The position numbers and the translations under genes are program-made. 52,547 nt of DNA, from NCBI GenBank assembly GCA_038212375.1, contig JBBQUO010000001.1, forward strand, positions 1 to 52,547, given 5' to 3'. Shown here piece after piece: positions 9,229-27,502 of this stretch. Source of the DNA: Minisyncoccia bacterium (lineage in GTDB: Bacteria > Patescibacteriota > Minisyncoccia > Phycocordibacterales > Zambryskibacteraceae). Every line of letters starts with the position of its first letter. Position 1 is the stretch's first letter. Below the pieces are notes generated by a model. That model searched no databases and had not been told where the DNA came from. It worked only from the letters and a program-made list of their open reading frames with translations.

Positions 9229-9354
9229 AAGGTAACTCCTGTTTTTTAGAAGGATGACAAAGAAACAGTTCTGGGGCAATATTAGCACGTAAATATAGAA
9301 AAGTCAAGTTATAAGCTAGTTCAAAAAAGGGAAGTGTGATAGAGTATTTCTCAT

Positions 9355-9436
9355 GCCGAGGTGGCGGAATTGGTATACGCGCTAGTCTTAGGAACTAGTT
9401 CCGTAAGGATTAGGAGTTCGAGTCTCCTCCTCGGCA
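9355..9436 (+). tRNA. tRNA-Leu (anticodon TAG)
   Basis: Manual cloverleaf: GCCGAGG/CCTCGGC acceptor, CTAGT-CTTAGGA-ACTAG anticodon arm, 13-nt variable arm, AGGAG-TTCGAGT-CTCCT T-arm. CCA is not encoded. Confidence 0.9.
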
Positions 9437-9440
9437 CAAG

Positions 9441-9466
9441 AAAACTGGCTTAGGCCAGTTTTTTGT
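9441..9466 (+). terminator. Terminator after tRNA-Leu(TAG)
   Basis: aaaactggc / ttag / gccagtttt, followed by ttgtt. Confidence 0.7.
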
Positions 9467-9471
9467 TGCAT

Positions 9472-9860
9472 CGAGGAGGAGGCTCGAAGGGCGTAGGTAT
9501 ATCGCAGATAGTAATCTGCGATACCGAGCTGGGGTCGCGGAAATTTTCGAACGACGGCGAGAAAATTATCTGTGAACGAGACTCGTTAGATGCGCGAGGA
9601 GACTCGAAGACCTTGAATATATCGCACGGAACGGAGTGAGTACGATATGAAAGGTGTACAGAGTCTGTAAGTCTCGAGTCTCCAGACTCGAGACATCACA
9701 ACAGAAAAGGCCAAGAGTGAAAGCTCTTGGCCTTTTCTGTTGTGGTTGAGTGGGAGACTTGAAAGGCGCAGGTAATATCGCATATGGTAATGTGCGACGT
9801 CGAGCCAAGGTAGCAAAAATATGTGAGCGACGGCAAATATATTATTCGTGATCGAGTCTC
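9472..9860 (-). repeat. Three degenerate tRNA-sized repeat units (minus sense), each ending in a tRNA-Leu-like T-arm/acceptor segment
   Basis: Units at about 9472-9584, 9591-9649 and 9752-9860 align by eye. Shared blocks are GGAGaCTCGAAg, TATCGCA-hairpin-TGCGA and CGACGGC..ATTAT..GTGA.CGAGaCTC. 9472-9488 is the reverse complement of tRNA-Leu positions TTCGAGTCTCCTCCTCG with one change. Confidence 0.7.
9697..9744. other. 21-bp perfect hairpin (bidirectional terminator-like)
   Basis: cacaacagaaaaggccaagag / tgaaag / ctcttggccttttctgttgtg. Confidence 0.7.
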
Positions 9861-9866
9861 ATTACG

Positions 9867-9895
9867 TTGACAATTTAATATAATATCAGTATTGT
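9867..9895 (+). promoter_or_regulatory. Candidate sigma70-type promoter for the coiled-coil gene
   Basis: TTGACA (9867-9872), 17-nt spacer, TATTGT (9890-9895), about 45 nt upstream of the ATG at 9939. Confidence 0.35.
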
Positions 9896-9938
9896 AATTT
9901 TTGGCAGTTCATTCCATACCTTAAGTCCAGAGGAAATT

Positions 9939-10373
9939 ATGGCACCAGCTAAAAAGGGTACCCCCAAGCAAAGGAAGCTGCGATTTACAAAACTAAACTT
10001 TGACAGACTCGTCTACGAAGTAGAAGAACTGAAAGATGTTTTGAGTGACTTCCGATCTCACGGGATACATTCGCTAGGAGACATCATTGATTTAAAGGCC
10101 AAACTTACAAAGCTTCATGGTGATAAAGAAACTCAGTGGGAAGCTTGTAAAGCCGCTGAAGGTTTCCTAAAATTACAAATTACTGAGTTGAACATGGCTT
10201 TGGTTGATCGCCAGCAAAATGTGGATGCTCTCACTCGTGATTTGCATGACGCAGATTTGATTTTGTCTAGTTTGCGAAAGGAGCTCAACTCATCATTGGC
10301 TGAAGCTCAACAGTTGAGAGATCAACTCAATCAATCGAAGATAGCTATCGTAAGAATTTCAAGTCTTATATAA
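9939..10373 (+). CDS. Hypothetical coiled-coil protein with basic N-terminus
   Basis: 144 aa. N-terminus APAKKGTPKQRKLRF, followed by heptad-like L/E/K/Q-rich sequence. Has its own promoter candidate and terminator. Confidence 0.55.
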   Translation: MAPAKKGTPKQRKLRFTKLNFDRLVYEVEELKDVLSDFRSHGIHSLGDIIDLKAKLTKLHGDKETQWEACKAAEGFLKLQITELNMALVDRQQNVDALTRDLHDADLILSSLRKELNSSLAEAQQLRDQLNQSKIAIVRISSLI

Positions 10374-10407
10374 TTTTACACTCAAGTGGTGTAAAAAAAT
10401 AAGTTTC

Positions 10408-10438
10408 AAGTCCACATCGGAAGATGTGGACTTTTGTT
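10408..10438 (+). terminator. Rho-independent terminator
   Basis: aagtccacatc / ggaa / gatgtggactt, followed by ttgtt. Confidence 0.75.
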
Positions 10439-10474
10439 ATACAAAAAGCTCCTGCGGGTTTTCTTTGTGGTCAC

Positions 10475-10782
10475 AAGTATTTTTCTACTGAAAAATCTCG
10501 CGACCTCGACGCGCAGTATCAAAAAAATCTCCCGCCAGTTTGGTCGGTCACAAATAATTCAATTGTCGCCAGAATTGAATTTTCACGACCCCGACTTGTG
10601 GTTTTGTGTGCACGTGTGGTCAGGAGTTTTTTTCTTTTCGTCAAAAGAAAAATCTCACGACCCAATTGGGATCGGTCACGAATATTCCACGAACCGTCGT
10701 TCGTGGAATTTCTCGACCCCAGCTCGTCATTTCGCTTACTAGCGAAATATGACTGTGCTTTTCGATCCCAACACGTCGCAAA
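10475..10782 (+). repeat. Field of degenerate tRNA-like/short dispersed repeat units (plus sense), convergent with tRNA-Lys
   Basis: Recurring GAAAAWTYTCRCGACCCC-like blocks at about 10490, 10582, 10648 and 10706. 10475-10498 matches 19895-19918 (24 nt, 1 mismatch). 10544-10559 equals 25190-25205 (16 nt exact). 10761-10772 (TTCGATCCCAAC) equals the tRNA-Lys T-loop plus 3' T-stem on the opposite strand. Confidence 0.65.
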
Positions 10783-10843
10783 ACTGTTTGCGACTTGGGT
10801 GCACAAAATAAAAAAGACGGCCTTCAAGCCGCTTTTTATTTTG

Positions 10844-10916
10844 TGCACCCAGTTGGGATCGAACCAACGACCTTATCCTTAAGAGGGATCTGCTCTACCA
10901 GCTGAGCTATGGGTGC
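10844..10916 (-). tRNA. tRNA-Lys (anticodon CTT)
   Basis: The reverse complement folds as GCACCCA..TGGGTGC acceptor, GCTC/GAGC D-stem, CTCTTAA anticodon loop, and GTTGG-TTCGATC-CCAAC T-arm. 73 nt. Confidence 0.9.
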
Positions 10917-10968
10917 AAAGCAAAATTAACTATCAGATAGTAGCCAAATTTTCCTCTTCTTGCAACCC

Positions 10969-12008
10969 TTACGAAACTCTCGTACTCTTGCTGATTGTAA
11001 AATAAATTTCAAAAAGAGTAAGGAATAGATTCAATGTCAGTGGTCCGAGGAGAAAGCCAATCGGTCCAAAAAAGCTTATTCCGCCGAGTATCGAGAGCAA
11101 AATGAGAAATGAATGCAATCTTACATTTCTTCCAATAAGCTTAGGTCCGAGTACATTGTCGATAAGGCCGACAGCAAGCATTCCCCATACCAATAGGCCA
11201 AACGCAGAAGCAGCTTTCCCTACAACAAATAAATAAACAATAGCTGGCAAGATGACTAGAGAAGTTCCTACGCTCGGTACAAGGGCTGCAACTACAGTAA
11301 CAAGGCCCCATAGAACCGCGCTAGGCACTCCAAAGAAGAGAAAGCCAATCGATGTTAATATTCCTTGTACAAGTGCCACCGTGAGGTTTCCTCTGATAAT
11401 AGAATTTGTAGCTATTTCGAGCTTATCAAAAACTATGACGTCGTACACATCACTGAGGGGACTCAGTTCAATAATTTTGTTTTTAATCGTTTTACCGTCC
11501 TTTAAGAGATAATACAGTGCAAGGAGGAAGATAAAGGTATCGACGAGAATTTTGATTGCGTTCGTAAAGAGAGATCCGATGTTTTGAATAAATATATCGA
11601 GACCACTTTTGATGTATTGATCAATATTAACAACAGCACTTTCAGGGATATTGAGATTTACTTTGAGGTTTTTCAGTGCCTCCACTGCATGTCTAGAGAA
11701 CTCAGTTGAGTTACTTGGTGTCGCAAGTGATGTGTAGATTCCTGTAGCTTCTTGGAATATTTGTACTGAAATAAAAGTGAGTGGGATAATAAGGACTATA
11801 AATACCAATAATGTAGTAAGACTTGCTGAGAAAGCAGGACTATTATGAGTTTTTTTAGTATCCGTTTGTGAATGGGGTCAAGTGCAGTTGCAAACACAAC
11901 CGCAAGAAGAAGGGGATACAAAAAAGGTTGAAAAATAAAAACTATCAATCCAAAAATAGCAATGAGTAATGCAAGGAGAAAATATAATTCTGACTTTTGA
12001 TTTTGCAT
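10969..12008 (-). pseudogene. AI-2E family transporter (PerM/UPF0118) split by a -1 frame change at an A7 run
   Basis: ORF 11796-12008 (N-terminal TM1 and ALDPIHKRILKK) and ORF 10969-11808 (remaining TM segments, ..VLWGLVTVVAALVPSVG..GLIDNVLGPKLIG..) lie in different frames. Adding one A to the run at 11850-11856 gives a continuous ..ILKKTHNSPAFSASLTTLLVFIVLIIPL.. Confidence 0.7.
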
Positions 12009-12018
12009 TAGTTTTTTG

Positions 12019-12100
12019 TGGGCCAGGAGGGAGTCGAACCCTCATCCGCAAGGCGGACAACATTTTAAGTGTTGCGTGTATACCATTCCACCACTAGCCC
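12019..12100 (-). tRNA. tRNA-Leu (anticodon TAA)
   Basis: GGGCTAG/CTGGCCC acceptor (one G-U), CAACA-CTTAAAA-TGTTG anticodon arm, 14-nt variable arm, GAGGG-TTCGACT-CCCTC T-arm. Confidence 0.9.
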
Positions 12101-12124
12101 ATAATTTAAAAGTGGGATCGATCT

Positions 12125-12137
12125 TTCGATTCCCATC
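12125..12137 (+). repeat. Opposite-strand exact copy of the tRNA-Cys T-loop/3' T-stem, inside that tRNA's terminator hairpin
   Basis: TTCGATTCCCATC matches the tRNA-Cys sense sequence over 13 nt, 22 nt downstream of the tRNA 3' end. Confidence 0.8.
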
Positions 12138-12159
12138 GAAAAAACTACGTTTTTTCTAG

Positions 12160-12231
12160 AGGCGTGGATGGGAATCGAACCCATGAATAAAGCTTTTGCA
12201 GAGCTTCGCCTTACCACTTGGCCACCACGCC
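12160..12231 (-). tRNA. tRNA-Cys (anticodon GCA)
   Basis: GGCGTGG/CCACGCC acceptor, AAGCT-CTGCAAA-AGCTT anticodon arm, ATGGG-TTCGATT-CCCAT T-arm. 72 nt. Confidence 0.9.
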
Positions 12232-19894: not shown

Positions 19895-20031
19895 AAGTAT
19901 TTTTCTGCTGAAAAATCTTTCAGCCCTACCTCGGCTCGACAGCCTCCGGTCTTGCGAAAGCTCCAAGTATTCGCTTTCTCACTCACTACGTTCTGTGCGA
20001 TACGCTCAATTTTTTCGAATCCTTCCCGCAA
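19895..20031 (+). repeat. Degenerate tRNA-like repeat unit (plus sense), convergent with tRNA-Tyr
   Basis: 19895-19918 matches 10475-10498. 19974-20012 aligns with the reverse complement of 9600-9650 (shared CGTTCYGTGCGATA core). 20014-20028 (TTCGAATCCTTCCCG) is an exact 15-nt copy of the tRNA-Tyr T-loop/acceptor on the opposite strand. Confidence 0.7.
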
Positions 20032-20051: not shown

Positions 20052-20093
20052 CACATACAAAAAAGAACCCAGAAGGGTTCTTTTTTGTATGTG
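20052..20093 (-). terminator. 19-bp perfect hairpin abutting the tRNA-Tyr 3' end
   Basis: cacatacaaaaaagaaccc / agaa / gggttcttttttgtatgtg. Confidence 0.75.
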
Positions 20094-20176
20094 TGCGCCG
20101 GGAAGGATTCGAACCTTCGTAGGCCGAAGCCGAGAGATTTACAGTCTCTTGTAATTGACCACTCTACCACCGACGC
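20094..20176 (-). tRNA. tRNA-Tyr (anticodon GTA), long variable arm
   Basis: GCGTCGG/CCGGCGC acceptor (one G-U), AGAGA-CTGTAAA-TCTCT anticodon arm, GAAGG-TTCGAAT-CCTTC T-arm. 83 nt. Confidence 0.9.
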
Positions 20177-24940: not shown

Positions 24941-25187
24941 GTACTCATTCTATACAGTGGAGAAAGAAAGGCAATTGAGATTGTTTTAGGTCACATGTCG
25001 ATTTTGTTCCGTCGAACAAAATCGTTTGCGGCCCCCGATTCAACATTCTTTCTTTTGAAAGAATGTACTTCCTTCTCACAAAAACTATGTGGGCATGCAA
25101 CGAAAGTCGGATGTTTACAGTTTACTTTATGAGTTTATGAGGGTTATAGTTTGCACATGCTTTGTTGCTGTAACGCACAGGAATAGT

Positions 25188-25300
25188 CTTCGGTCACAAA
25201 TAATTTCCTCGCCGACGCTCAAAAATTTTCGCGACCCCACCTCACTTCTGGACTCTACTGAGTCCAGTCTCGCTTTGCTCGAGCGTTCCGGCTCACGAAA
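25188..25300 (+). repeat. Orphan copy of the tRNA-like dispersed repeat (no tRNA gene adjacent)
   Basis: 25190-25205 equals 10544-10559. 25222-25238 (AAAATTTTCGCGACCCC) matches the reverse complement of 9531-9547 at 16 of 17 positions. Followed by the 8-bp hairpin ctggactc/gagtccag (25248-25267). Confidence 0.6.
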
Positions 25301-25321
25301 ACCATCCTGCTTTATACACTA

Positions 25322-27502
25322 TTATTTCATTAATTTATGGGGATTGTGGTTTGAACATGATTTACTCGAACATCTTTCTGGGATGGTTTTTGTGCCATCC
25401 ATCATGAGGCTTCCGCAGAGGTCGCATATTGCTCCGGTAGGTTTTGCTTTGATTGCGTTCTTGCATTTTGGATAGTTCGTACATGAATAGAAAATGCCGA
25501 AGCGGCCACGGCGTTCCATCATTTCTCCATCAGAGCAAACAGGACATTTCACACCAGTAAGAAGTTTTTTCTTTGCTTCTGGATCTTCTTTTACAAATTT
25601 ACATTTTGGATATCGTCCACATGCAATGAATCTGCCGTATTTTCCATCTCGTTCTACAAGATTAGCTTTACCGCATTCAGGACAGAGCTCGCCAGTATCT
25701 TTTGGTCCCATCATTTCTTCACCATCGAGACTCCTCGCTCCAGTACAGTTAGGGAATGTTTCGCACGAAAGGAAACGGCCATTTTTCCCGAGTTTAATAA
25801 TCATGTCACTTCCACACTTAGGACACTTCCACTGCGGATCAGCCTTTCCAAGGTTCGTAATTTTATTTAATTTATCTTTTGATTTTATATCTTTGAGGAA
25901 AGGTGTATAAAACTCTTTCAGGGTTTTCACATAGTCGCGTTTTCCAAGCGCTATGTCATCGAGCTTGTCTTCCATCTCTGCTGTAAATGAGTCATTGATG
26001 TACTCAAGGAAATTATCTTCGAGGAAAGAGCTTACCACGTCTCCGGTATCAGTTGGGATGAGTGATCGCTGTTCTTTCAAGACATAGCCACGATCAACAA
26101 TAGTTTTGATGATAGATGCGTACGTTGATGGTCTTCCAATGCCACGTTTCTCCAGCTCTTTGACGAGTCCTGCTTCAGAATATCGAGGGAGGGGAGTTGT
26201 CTGTTTCTCTTCAGTATTCAAGCTGAGTAGTTTGAGAGCCGCACCCTTTGCAAGTTTTGGCACTTCGATATCTTCTTGTTTTGCATGCGGGTCTGCCACA
26301 AGCCATCCATCAAAAAGTACCCTCGAACCATTTAGTGAAAAGTCAGGTATCGTATCTGAAGCAATATTTGCAGTTACTTTCGTGCGGAGCATTCTCGCAT
26401 CTTTCATTTGTGATGCGACCGTGCGCGCCCAAATGAGCGCATAGAGTTTTTTTTGCTCGTCGTTATTACCAGCACTCATTTTTGTAATATCAGACGGTCT
26501 CACCGCTTCGTGCGCTTCTTGAGCATTCTTACTCGTTTTTCCAAAGACTCTTTCTTCGAGAAGATTTGGCCCAAATTTTTTATTCACCACTTCAGCAATT
26601 TGCTTCTTTGCTTGAACACTGAGGTTCGTACTATCAGTACGCATGTAGGTAATATATCCAGCTTCATAGAGTTTCTGCGCTACACCCATCGTTCTCGATG
26701 GAGAAAATCCAAGTCTGGAGCTCGCAGCTTGCTGAAGGGTAGAAGTAATAAAGGGGGGTTTTGGTGCCCGTTTTACTTCAGTCTCTTTGATATCTTTGAT
26801 TGCCCAGTGTTCACTTTCTGCAATCTGTACAATGCGGTCAACCTCTTTTTTGTCCCGAGGTTCTTCATCGCACATAAAGGTGAGTTCGGTGTTTTCTTTT
26901 GTTTGAAGAAGTGCTGAGAGGGACCAATATGTTTCAGGAATAAAAGCGCGGATTTCTCGTTCACGTTCCATAATGATGCGAAGTGCGGGAGACTGTACGC
27001 GTCCTGCAGAAAGACCGTACCGCACTTTTTTCCAGATCAGCCCCGAAAGGTCATATCCTACAAGTCGATCAAGTACGCGACGTGCTTCCTGTGCAATCTT
27101 GAGGTTATCGTCGATCTCGCGAGGATGCTTCATAGCTTCTGTTACTGCATCTTTCGTAATTTCATGAAAGACGACACGCTTTGGTTTGCGCAGTCCCACT
27201 GCTTGTGCAATGTGCCAGGCGATCGCTTCTCCTTCACGGTCGGGGTCAGTCGCGAGGATGACATCTTCTGCTCCTGCTGCGAGTTTTTTGATCTCACTGA
27301 CTACTTTCTCCTTTCCTTTTGAAATTTCATAATGCGGCACAAAACCAGCTTCGATGTCGATAGCTTTTTTGTTCGACTTTGGAAGGTCTCTGACATGACC
27401 AATAGACGCGACTACATCGTACTCGTCGTTGAGATATTTTGAAATTGTTTTTGCCTTTGCCGGAGACTCAACAATCAATAATTTTTTTCCGTGTTTTGCC
27501 AT
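25322..27502 (-). CDS. topA: DNA topoisomerase I
   Basis: Start at MAKHGKKLLIVESPAKAKTISKYL (27502). TOPRIM and Topo IA core, with several C-terminal Cys4 zinc ribbons. Confidence 0.95.
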   Translation of the reverse strand: MAKHGKKLLIVESPAKAKTISKYLNDEYDVVASIGHVRDLPKSNKKAIDIEAGFVPHYEISKGKEKVVSEIKKLAAGAEDVILATDPDREGEAIAWHIAQAVGLRKPKRVVFHEITKDAVTEAMKHPREIDDNLKIAQEARRVLDRLVGYDLSGLIWKKVRYGLSAGRVQSPALRIIMEREREIRAFIPETYWSLSALLQTKENTELTFMCDEEPRDKKEVDRIVQIAESEHWAIKDIKETEVKRAPKPPFITSTLQQAASSRLGFSPSRTMGVAQKLYEAGYITYMRTDSTNLSVQAKKQIAEVVNKKFGPNLLEERVFGKTSKNAQEAHEAVRPSDITKMSAGNNDEQKKLYALIWARTVASQMKDARMLRTKVTANIASDTIPDFSLNGSRVLFDGWLVADPHAKQEDIEVPKLAKGAALKLLSLNTEEKQTTPLPRYSEAGLVKELEKRGIGRPSTYASIIKTIVDRGYVLKEQRSLIPTDTGDVVSSFLEDNFLEYINDSFTAEMEDKLDDIALGKRDYVKTLKEFYTPFLKDIKSKDKLNKITNLGKADPQWKCPKCGSDMIIKLGKNGRFLSCETFPNCTGARSLDGEEMMGPKDTGELCPECGKANLVERDGKYGRFIACGRYPKCKFVKEDPEAKKKLLTGVKCPVCSDGEMMERRGRFGIFYSCTNYPKCKNAIKAKPTGAICDLCGSLMMDGTKTIPERCSSKSCSNHNPHKLMK

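Follow-up and report, generated by a model that had tools for sequence, protein, structure and literature searches.

Folded repeats behind tRNA genes and topA in a Minisyncoccia genome carry inverted and direct copies of the gene ends that they follow

Introduction

REP elements are not known to have a branched form, a tie to tRNA 3′ ends or closing copies derived from their target, and the BOX, Correia and RUP elements carry fixed terminal inverted repeats and are associated with short or no target duplications. The genomes of Patescibacteria (the candidate phyla radiation, CPR) are tiny and are thought to contain hardly any mobile DNA and few known non-coding RNAs. We describe here two families of folded intergenic repeats, type A and type B, in a Minisyncoccia bacterium of this phylum. 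They stand downstream of tRNA genes and, in some cases, of the protein genes topA and rplL, and they carry copies of the 3′ end of the gene that they follow. The stretch analysed (the window) is 52,547 nt long (GenBank assembly GCA_038212375.1, contig JBBQUO010000001.1) and makes up the entire contig C1 of a genome of 657 kb in 37 contigs, with 41% GC and a completeness of 92% (G000). For comparison we used 41 genomes from its order and a sample of 151 from across the class. Rfam 15 gave no match to the elements at gathering thresholds over the whole window and only chance-level matches at E up to 10, we found no description of either family in the full-text literature, and the nearest described kinds are REP, BOX and Correia repeats and tDNA islands.

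Results

The locus at which the repeats were noticed lies between two convergent tRNA genes, tRNA-Leu(tag) (9355–9437, plus strand) and tRNA-Lys(ctt) (10843–10916, minus strand), both recognised by ARAGORN and Rfam. Behind tRNA-Leu(tag) a type A element (9468–9586), a type B element (9594–9695) and a second type A element (9743–9862) follow each other in tandem on the plus strand; behind tRNA-Lys(ctt) there are one type A element (10665–10781) and two partial ones on the minus strand. An initial annotation had read the left-hand array as three tandem tRNA-like units of about 70 nt on the minus strand and had reported the same layout at 10706–10782 and 25222–25300. The repeated layout is present at all these places and its motifs are not random: CGACCCCAGCTCG with at most two mismatches has three matches where 0.31 are expected, GGTCACRA-N15-45-TCNCGACC has four where none is expected, and covariance models return E-values of 1e-20 to 1e-31. 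The first and third units are indeed homologous (72% identity over 90 nt) and are type A, as are the copies at 10706–10782 and 25222–25300, whereas the middle unit belongs to the separate family B. The elements are longer than was proposed, about 117 nt for type A and about 105 nt for type B, and their structure is borne by the opposite strand, which is the sense of the neighbouring tRNA: all 12 type A copies folded on both strands fold better in that sense, by 8.8 kcal/mol on average. For type B this asymmetry is lower (8 of 12).

Type A was searched with covariance model R1 and type B with covariance model R2, whose bit scores are given below; alignments and searches were built on one common seed. 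A fuzzy regular-expression scan for type B missed known copies, and nhmmer and covariance models were used in its place. Type A folds into a three-way junction whose closing helix is formed by an inverted segment, IR-L, and the start of a direct copy, X′, with the arms hp2 (loop YAGYAR) and hp1 (GGUCG-N-GRAAUU...AAUU-A-UYUGUGACC). Type B consists of helix P1 (ACCUU/AAGGU), a GA/GA internal loop, helix P2 (AUAUCG/CGAUAU), a variable tip and a small hairpin around CUGUAAG. The three hairpins with unlike stems in the initial annotation lie where it had placed them (ATCGCAGA/TCTGCGAT at 9501–9522, ATTTCGCT/AGCGAAAT at 10729–10748 and CTGGACTC/GAGTCCAG at 25248–25267). In a structure-blind MAFFT alignment of 11 copies from G000 (A1), 27 of 37 type A pairs show compensatory change. 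When 61 copies from more than 30 genomes are aligned to the model, a fitting that inflates the share of paired cells, 93.7% of type A cells pair, compared with 65.9% in the shuffled alignment and 36–45% when the pairing is slid, and double changes occur in 33/37 pairs; type B pairs in 94.7% of cells versus 71.8% after shuffling, with double changes in 15/18 pairs. The proposal that pairing is retained while the sequence changes is borne out by these values. Two G·U pairs are conserved on the tRNA-sense strand, and the one at 118:175 is kept in 53 of 58 type A copies. A K-turn reading of GGUCGNGA/UGUGACC was dropped by eye, the G·A/A·G register being absent.

The tRNA-like appearance of the units does not stem from a tRNA fold. 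ARAGORN called none of them and only the 7 true tRNAs of the window, and cmscan at E up to 10 over 9300–10950 placed tRNA matches at the two real genes only. No T-stem is possible, as the sequence on the 5′ side of the TTCGAG segment is not complementary to the 3′ strand. Instead, the segment TTCGAG...CCTCGATGCA is the reverse complement of the 3′ part of the adjoining tRNA-Leu(tag), with which it forms a 28-nt inverted repeat, and the copy at 10761–10783 mirrors tRNA-Lys(ctt) likewise. IR-L is an inverted copy of the neighbouring tRNA end, and the T-loop and acceptor look is therefore borrowed from that tRNA and is no tRNA remnant. Genome-wide, about 18 of the 39 tRNA genes of G000 have such an inverted copy of their own 3′ end 10–70 nt downstream; the scores, 12–18, exceed the maximum of 10.5 obtained after shuffling, and upstream of the tRNAs they are at noise level. 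Perfect palindromes of 19–29 bp that include tRNA 3′ ends were likewise seen at about 18 of the 39 tRNAs, at some of them without a module. Two unusual tRNAs show which strand is copied. The tRNA-Trp has a G·U pair in its T-stem, and because its shadow reads GAAGG rather than GAGGG, the sequence of the stem's 5′ strand, the shadow must copy the 3′ strand; in a relative (L029), tRNA-Asp carries an odd T-loop, GTCAGCA, and the shadow is TGCTGAC. The Trp case and the reverse-complemented T-loops rule out that IR-L was copied directly from the 5′ strands of the stems, as it would be in a tandem tRNA duplicate.

All well-preserved copies have the same order in the sense of the gene: the gene's 3′ end (X), a trailer or terminator hairpin, an optional anti-acceptor segment with a variable hairpin hp0 (GAAG-stem-loop-stem-CGT), IR-L, the module and X′. 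IR-L is the inverted form of the first 9–18 nt of X and ends in ..ATCGAA, the complement of T54–A58 of the T-loop. X′ is a second direct copy of X that starts near G57/A58 and is 5 to about 95 nt long; in tRNAs, X begins at the T-loop or at a CACAAA trailer. Simple palindrome extension was rejected as the origin of X′, which is colinear with X over up to 83 nt, whereas IR-L covers only 9–18 nt.

The left-hand array shows this order at nucleotide level. The part of tRNA-Leu(tag) from T54 to the 3′ end serves as X and is copied in the elements downstream. It is followed by the trailer or terminator hairpin at 9434–9469 (plus strand; inverted repeats I2 and I9, fold), and inverted repeats and folding further show a long palindrome (9417–9444/9461–9488) that includes the tRNA-Leu 3′ end and is joined with this hairpin. 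The first type A element (R1 94.7 bits, E 6e-24) has its IR-L, the inverted tRNA-Leu 3′ part, at 9472–9488, hp2 at 9501–9522 and hp1 at 9533–9577, with a short T-loop-like direct copy after hp1. The type B element (R2 95 bits, E 1.6e-19; alignment A3) begins with IR-L at 9595–9608, continues with P1, the internal loop and P2 and ends with the small hairpin and a direct copy, TCGAGTCTCC. A perfect hairpin with 21-bp arms, assigned to neither strand (9697–9744; inverted repeat I3), separates it from the second type A element (R1 87.1 bits; IR-L 9752–9763, direct copy 9850–9860). In the right-hand array, where the 3′ part of tRNA-Lys(ctt) is copied, a minus-strand region at 10775–10851 holds hp0 (10775–10794), the anti-acceptor segment and a palindrome (inverted repeats I4 and I6, terminator scan); the perfect 19-bp palindrome 10796–10814/10833–10851 spans the last tRNA-Lys bases and the terminator. 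The type A element behind it (R1 119.2 bits, E 6e-31) consists of IR-L (10761–10772), hp2 (10729–10748), hp1 (10674–10718) and X′ (10660–10673). The two partial elements (10460–10663, minus strand; R1 45.1 and 29.3 bits, pattern matches) are mostly hp1-type hairpins, GGUCGNGA..UUGUGACC, and each is followed by a tRNA-Lys 3′-end-like fragment.

Covariance models count 25 type A and 15 type B matches in G000. In the analysis of position, which covered 40 matches, 17 of 26 type A and 12 of 14 type B matches lie within 700 nt downstream of a tRNA, a placement expected for about 2% of genome positions, and all 29 are co-oriented with it. Five further type A matches are at contig ends; type A was seen at the ends of contigs C8, C14, C15 and C34, and C14 and C15 start with the same element and then diverge. 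Such repeats break assemblies, and copy numbers in fragmented metagenome-assembled genomes (MAGs) are therefore underestimates. In relatives, a tRNA is directly upstream in 21 of 30 best-match loci, co-oriented in 21/21, while 3 more loci follow topA and 2 follow rplL. The same module stands behind at least 15 different tRNAs. Orientation follows the gene and not the replichore, since behind each of the convergent Leu and Lys genes the elements run in the sense of that gene, and control by replication direction was rejected on this ground. Elements also occur between co-oriented tRNAs without a U-tract terminator (Val–A–Arg, Lys–A–A–Leu and, in G002, Lys–B–Leu; loci including L040 and L034), from which we infer that they are part of the tRNA precursor. 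Within the order, type A is present in 34 of 41 genomes (1–22 matches each) and type B in 31 of 41, and the 7 genomes negative for A are all negative for B; in the sample of the class, 59 of the 151 genomes have type A at E up to 1e-6. With hundreds of further copies in the covariance-model searches and strong compensatory change, the suggestion that the units are not inert pseudogene debris was well founded.

Comparison of spacers in related genomes reveals empty and filled sites. Between tRNA-Cys and tRNA-Leu(taa) there is 1 nt in G001 and an empty spacer of 53 nt in G003, a congener of G004, where a type A element fills the spacer between the two copies of a direct duplication that measures about 55 nt and runs from the T-loop to the end of the trailer hairpin. 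In G037 the site is likewise filled by a full type A element, here with about 95 nt duplicated, and in G000 the spacer is reduced to a solo closing hairpin of IR-L and X′ without a module (12112–12136, minus strand). The spacer between Lys(ctt) and Leu(tag) is occupied by type B in G002 and by type A in G001, G004 and G005. Copy numbers in five congeners are 25/16/7/5/13 for type A and 15/5/7/9/2 for type B. Insertion is accompanied by a direct duplication of the target's 3′ end, with the gene left intact and a displaced copy left behind. Empty and filled sites and flanking direct duplications are features of miniature inverted-repeat transposable elements (MITEs); here the inverted repeat stems from the target and the duplications range from 5 to about 95 nt, a combination that to our knowledge is unlike any MITE. 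A regenerated gene with a displaced direct 3′ fragment, the hallmark of tDNA islands, is found behind both tRNAs and topA.

The element behind topA extends these observations to a protein gene. In the window, topA ends at 25325 on the minus strand and is directly followed by a type A element (25183–25301, minus strand; R1 80 bits), whose IR-L (25294–25307) is complementary to topA codons at 25381–25394. A second, diverged copy of the last 23 topA codons (X, 25322–25390) lies at 25122–25190 on the same strand and is still an open frame with its stop at the homologous position; past it, there is a second, weaker type A element (24980–25097, minus strand; R1 49.4 bits). The site is filled in 12 genomes and empty in 14, including the congeners G002 and G003, and in G024 three tandem copies follow topA whose repeat units look identical in sequence. 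X comprises the last 55–83 nt of the reading frame and thus takes in the stop codon. In G004 X and X′ do not differ, in G011 and G037 they are almost identical, and elsewhere they have diverged, mostly at synonymous sites (14:5 in G007, 13:5 in G021, 11:3 in G029 and 10:7 in G000), and X′ usually retains frame and stop codon. In a comparison that is noisy over only 57 nt, X′ often resembles the topA of a different genome more closely than its own X; one of the two copies therefore has the look of a topA end that once was coding and is possibly foreign. Elements that bring along a replacement 3′ end and use it for recombination would agree with this. Across genomes IR-L covaries with the synonymous state of X (CACAAAAAC/GTTTTTGTG, CACGAAAAC/GTTTTCGTG, CACAAAGACT/AGTCTTTGTG, TACCAAAAC/GTTTTGGTA), and as read from the sequence, the IR-L of G000 can still pair with the diverged X′ through three G·U wobbles. 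In G017 and G018, a second copy of the topA end continues in frame past the TAG stop of topA without a module in between; the second copy of the topA end may reflect readthrough, a lost zinc-ribbon repeat or foreign origin.

Further features of the window and genome touch on the elements. A type B-like element with an insertion of about 100 nt in its tip (19898–20028, minus strand; R2 30.6 bits) lies behind tRNA-Tyr (window 20093–20176), and such a tip insertion also occurs behind tRNA-Leu(gag) (C6:12913–13240). The insertion contains a type-A-like hp1 hairpin (GGYUGAAAGAYUUUUCAGYAGAAAAAUACUUUURAYC), so that elements appear to be nested inside elements. A comparison of window 9355–12231 with loci L096–L100 shows that the tRNA-Leu(tag) gene is inverted relative to the cluster of Cys, Leu(taa) and Lys(ctt) in G000 and G001 and co-oriented with it in G002, G004 and G005; the breakpoint falls at the element arrays. 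In the interval that separates the two outward-facing arrays, and outside the element family, an orphan open reading frame (ORF) for a coiled-coil-like protein of 144 amino acids (9939–10373, plus strand) has its own promoter-like site (9867–9895) and terminator (10408–10433). Homologues are lacking in 40 relatives, and neither Pfam nor NCBIfam assigns it to a family above cut-off; the tRNA and element hotspot therefore seems to have captured a strain-specific gene, and for the same reasons its product was rejected as a partner protein. On contig C26, a tRNA with an undetermined two-base anticodon (tt) at 1749–1821 directly follows an initiator-like tRNA-Met (ARAGORN), and degenerate pieces of types A and B lie past it.

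Discussion

Our preferred reading, on which we are evenly divided between acceptance and doubt, is that types A and B are two related, Paceibacteria-specific families of non-autonomous structured insertion elements, which settle in the 3′ flank of conserved genes (tRNAs, topA, rplL), duplicate the end of their target and are co-transcribed with the tRNAs. The elements would be transcribed within tRNA precursors and fold as RNA, IR-L and X′ forming the closing helix and hp2 and hp1 the arms in type A. Colonisation of new sites might depend on host replication or repair, through microhomology-guided template switching at the near-palindromic and universally conserved T-loop (TTCGAA) or at CACAAA, the route that we favour, or on an enzyme acting in trans, and spread between genomes could occur by homologous recombination through the conserved X. 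The complementarity of IR-L to X may be kept up by selection for pairing or by template-switch correction of quasi-palindromes; the latter is an established process (PMC7202029). A more far-reaching version, which we offer tentatively as a possibility rather than an expectation, sees a self-tailoring mobile element: by copying the gene end once inverted and once direct it would make its own closing helix while preserving the gene, ride in the tRNA precursor and spread without an element-encoded enzyme. With the anti-acceptor segment and hp0 it would mimic the stack of acceptor and T-arm, and it may be recognised by tRNA-processing enzymes or by a shared Paceibacteria-specific factor.

Several points weigh against insertion elements of this kind. 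The template-switch route has multiple steps and appears never to have been observed, and we know of no single mechanism that yields both an inverted copy and a long direct duplication of the target. It is not assured that the elements are always transcribed, as many copies lie behind an intrinsic terminator. Structure at the level of RNA rather than of single-stranded DNA is likely but not proven, because outside the two conserved G·U columns the strand asymmetry is weak, with a modest excess of G·U over A·C (74 versus 46 cells); the inflated pairing values from model-fitted alignments have to be borne in mind as well. The search for a mover adds to these difficulties. No autonomous partner or transposase was seen among reverse transcriptases, tyrosine recombinases and RAYTs (REP-associated tyrosine transposases), the other transposase families not having been searched singly. 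RVT_1, the reverse transcriptase model, has no match in the 92%-complete G000, whose sole tyrosine recombinase is Xer-like, with XerC and XerD as best NCBIfam models and integron-integrase models far below cut-off. Type A occurs without a RAYT match in 14 genomes, and a RAYT without type A in 5.

The candidates suggested by known movers did not withstand closer inspection. A RAYT-like ORF in G000 (C17:13073–13753, minus strand; locus L082:774–1454) encodes 226 amino acids of the Y1 (HUH) type and scores 30.7 bits with Y1_Tnp and 41 bits with REP_Tyr_transpos, for which the cut-off is 80. It is flanked by CCTAGGTCTCACC palindromes and not by A or B, with the motif upstream and a perfect palindrome on the same motif downstream, and homologues were found in 25 of 41 relatives (up to 4 per genome). 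With its own flanking palindromes and an uncorrelated distribution, a RAYT/REP link was rejected; the RAYT and its palindromes form a second, independent repeat system. A retro-element akin to a diversity-generating retroelement (DGR) was rejected in the absence of RVT_1 and of adenine-specific differences between X and X′, and integrase scars and integron attC sites were rejected with only an Xer-type recombinase present. Carriage by phages was examined with one 20-nt motif of the type A junction: it had 5 matches in IMG/VR, none of which (0/5) is type A by covariance model.

The alternative that the modules are host-selected structured RNAs, functional in tRNA, topA and rplL transcripts as insulators, processing or stability signals or protein sites with the flanking X copies as by-products, seems rather unlikely to us. 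Pairing of 94–97% in diverged copies together with conserved bulges and G·U pairs would fit an RNA selected by the host at each locus as well, which is a further point against insertion elements. The strong compensatory change, the conserved G·U pairs and bulges in the tRNA sense, the strict co-orientation with the upstream gene and the sites within tRNA operons all speak for such a role, as does the topA-linked copy, which is kept across several families and whose IR-L covaries with synonymous changes and can pair with the diverged X′ via G·U wobbles. The joint absence of A and B from 7 genomes suggests a shared partner. A host function is difficult to reconcile, however, with copy numbers that differ up to five-fold between congeners, with one and the same spacer being empty or occupied by A or B in sister species, with whole genera that lack both families, with the many copies behind terminators and with the internally deleted and solo-hairpin remnants.

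Scars of integrase-borne islands or prophages, in which X and X′ would be the regenerated tRNA end and the displaced fragment and the modules conserved att-proximal arms that outlasted the deletion of the island, are a quite improbable source, even though direct duplications of a tRNA 3′ part from the T-loop are just what tDNA islands leave (PMC4383910) and an intact gene with a displaced fragment behind it is seen here at the 3′ ends of tRNAs and protein genes alike. The intervals measure only 120–250 nt and contain no ORF, the single module found behind at least 15 tRNAs would require a separate attP for each, there is no integrase beyond the Xer type, and the motif matches in IMG/VR were not type A. 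Moreover, RNA-type covariation is not expected of protein-binding arms, and an additional inverted copy is foreign to att sites. We consider it very improbable that there is no element at all and that palindromes grew neutrally and were duplicated in tandem around terminator hairpins in cells devoid of hairpin nucleases, with modules of local origin. The perfect palindromes at tRNA 3′ ends, some of them without a module, and the tandem arrays would agree with this idea. So would the results for SbcD (TIGR00619), which has no homologue above cut-off in the 41 genomes, G000 having only a sub-threshold match of 25 bits, while the control search found it in 13 of 14 reference genomes; this result fits the survival of perfect 19–29-bp palindromes and also belongs to the setting of our preferred reading. 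As none of the 41 genomes has it above cut-off, SbcD was rejected as the factor that separates element-positive from element-negative genomes. However, the modules are homologous in sequence and structure across loci and bacterial families, with E down to 1e-31, and cannot have arisen locally, and the junction positions are fixed relative to the T-loop. That the units are decayed minus-strand tRNA genes or tRNA-like RNAs, as the T-loop and acceptor-like sequence had suggested, is hardly credible: neither ARAGORN nor the Rfam tRNA model sees them at E up to 10, they have no T-stem, the segment in question is the inverted 3′ strand of the neighbouring tRNA as in the Trp (GAAGG) and L029 (complement of GTCAGCA) cases, the module also follows topA and rplL, and folding favours the other strand.

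In a genome of 657 kb, the two families account for a visible part of the intergenic DNA, break contigs and mark rearrangements of tRNA clusters. If they are mobile, they insert beside essential genes, with the gene end duplicated and preserved and without an element-encoded enzyme; if they are functional RNAs, they form a new abundant class linked to the maturation of tRNAs, in organisms for which growth in isolation is not yet possible. In either case, the covariance models allow the elements to be masked, account for the tRNA shadows and for contig breaks in Paceibacteria MAGs and avert false calls of tRNA pseudogenes.

Types A and B share features with several known systems. Like REP, BIME and REPIN repeats, they are short, multi-copy, non-coding extragenic hairpins at gene 3′ ends that are probably co-transcribed and vary in copy number, but they differ by their branched form of about 105–117 nt, their tie to tRNA ends and their closure by target-derived copies. 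With the modular, MITE-like BOX, Correia and RUP elements they have in common that they are non-autonomous, foldable, intergenic and probably co-transcribed and have modular arms (present, absent or multiplied); in A and B, the target supplies the terminal repeat, and between 5 and about 95 nt of the upstream gene's 3′ end are duplicated. In regard to tRNA genes, tDNA islands come close, as they also leave the gene intact with a displaced direct 3′ copy, often from the T-loop, at the far end of the insert (PMC4383910), whereas the inserts here are only about 120–250 nt long, lack an integrase, bring one module to many tRNAs and include an additional inverted copy. Integron attC sites resemble A and B in that structure prevails over sequence, in a strand-specific hairpin with conserved unpaired bases and in the fixed orientation 3′ of a gene. 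However, no integron integrase was found in G000, A and B stand behind tRNAs rather than in cassette arrays, and we saw no RYYYAAC/GTTRRRY core boxes in their closing helices, which are locus-specific gene copies. To the tRNA itself (RF00005) the elements owe the T-loop and the 3′ strands of T-stem and acceptor, and where the anti-acceptor segment and hp0 are present, the strand order (acceptor 5′-like, hairpin, T 5′-like, insert, T 3′, acceptor 3′) echoes the topology of a tRNA; unlike a tRNA they have no cloverleaf or anticodon arm, and the T-loop is replaced by its own complement and a module of about 90 nt. The two direct copies of the last topA codons with a hairpin after the first recall a DGR, from which the elements are set apart by the lack of a reverse transcriptase, by differences between X and X′ that are of all kinds and not confined to adenines, and by targets that are mostly tRNAs. 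In comparison with all these systems, it is the target-derived closing helix together with the long duplication of the gene's 3′ end that distinguishes types A and B.

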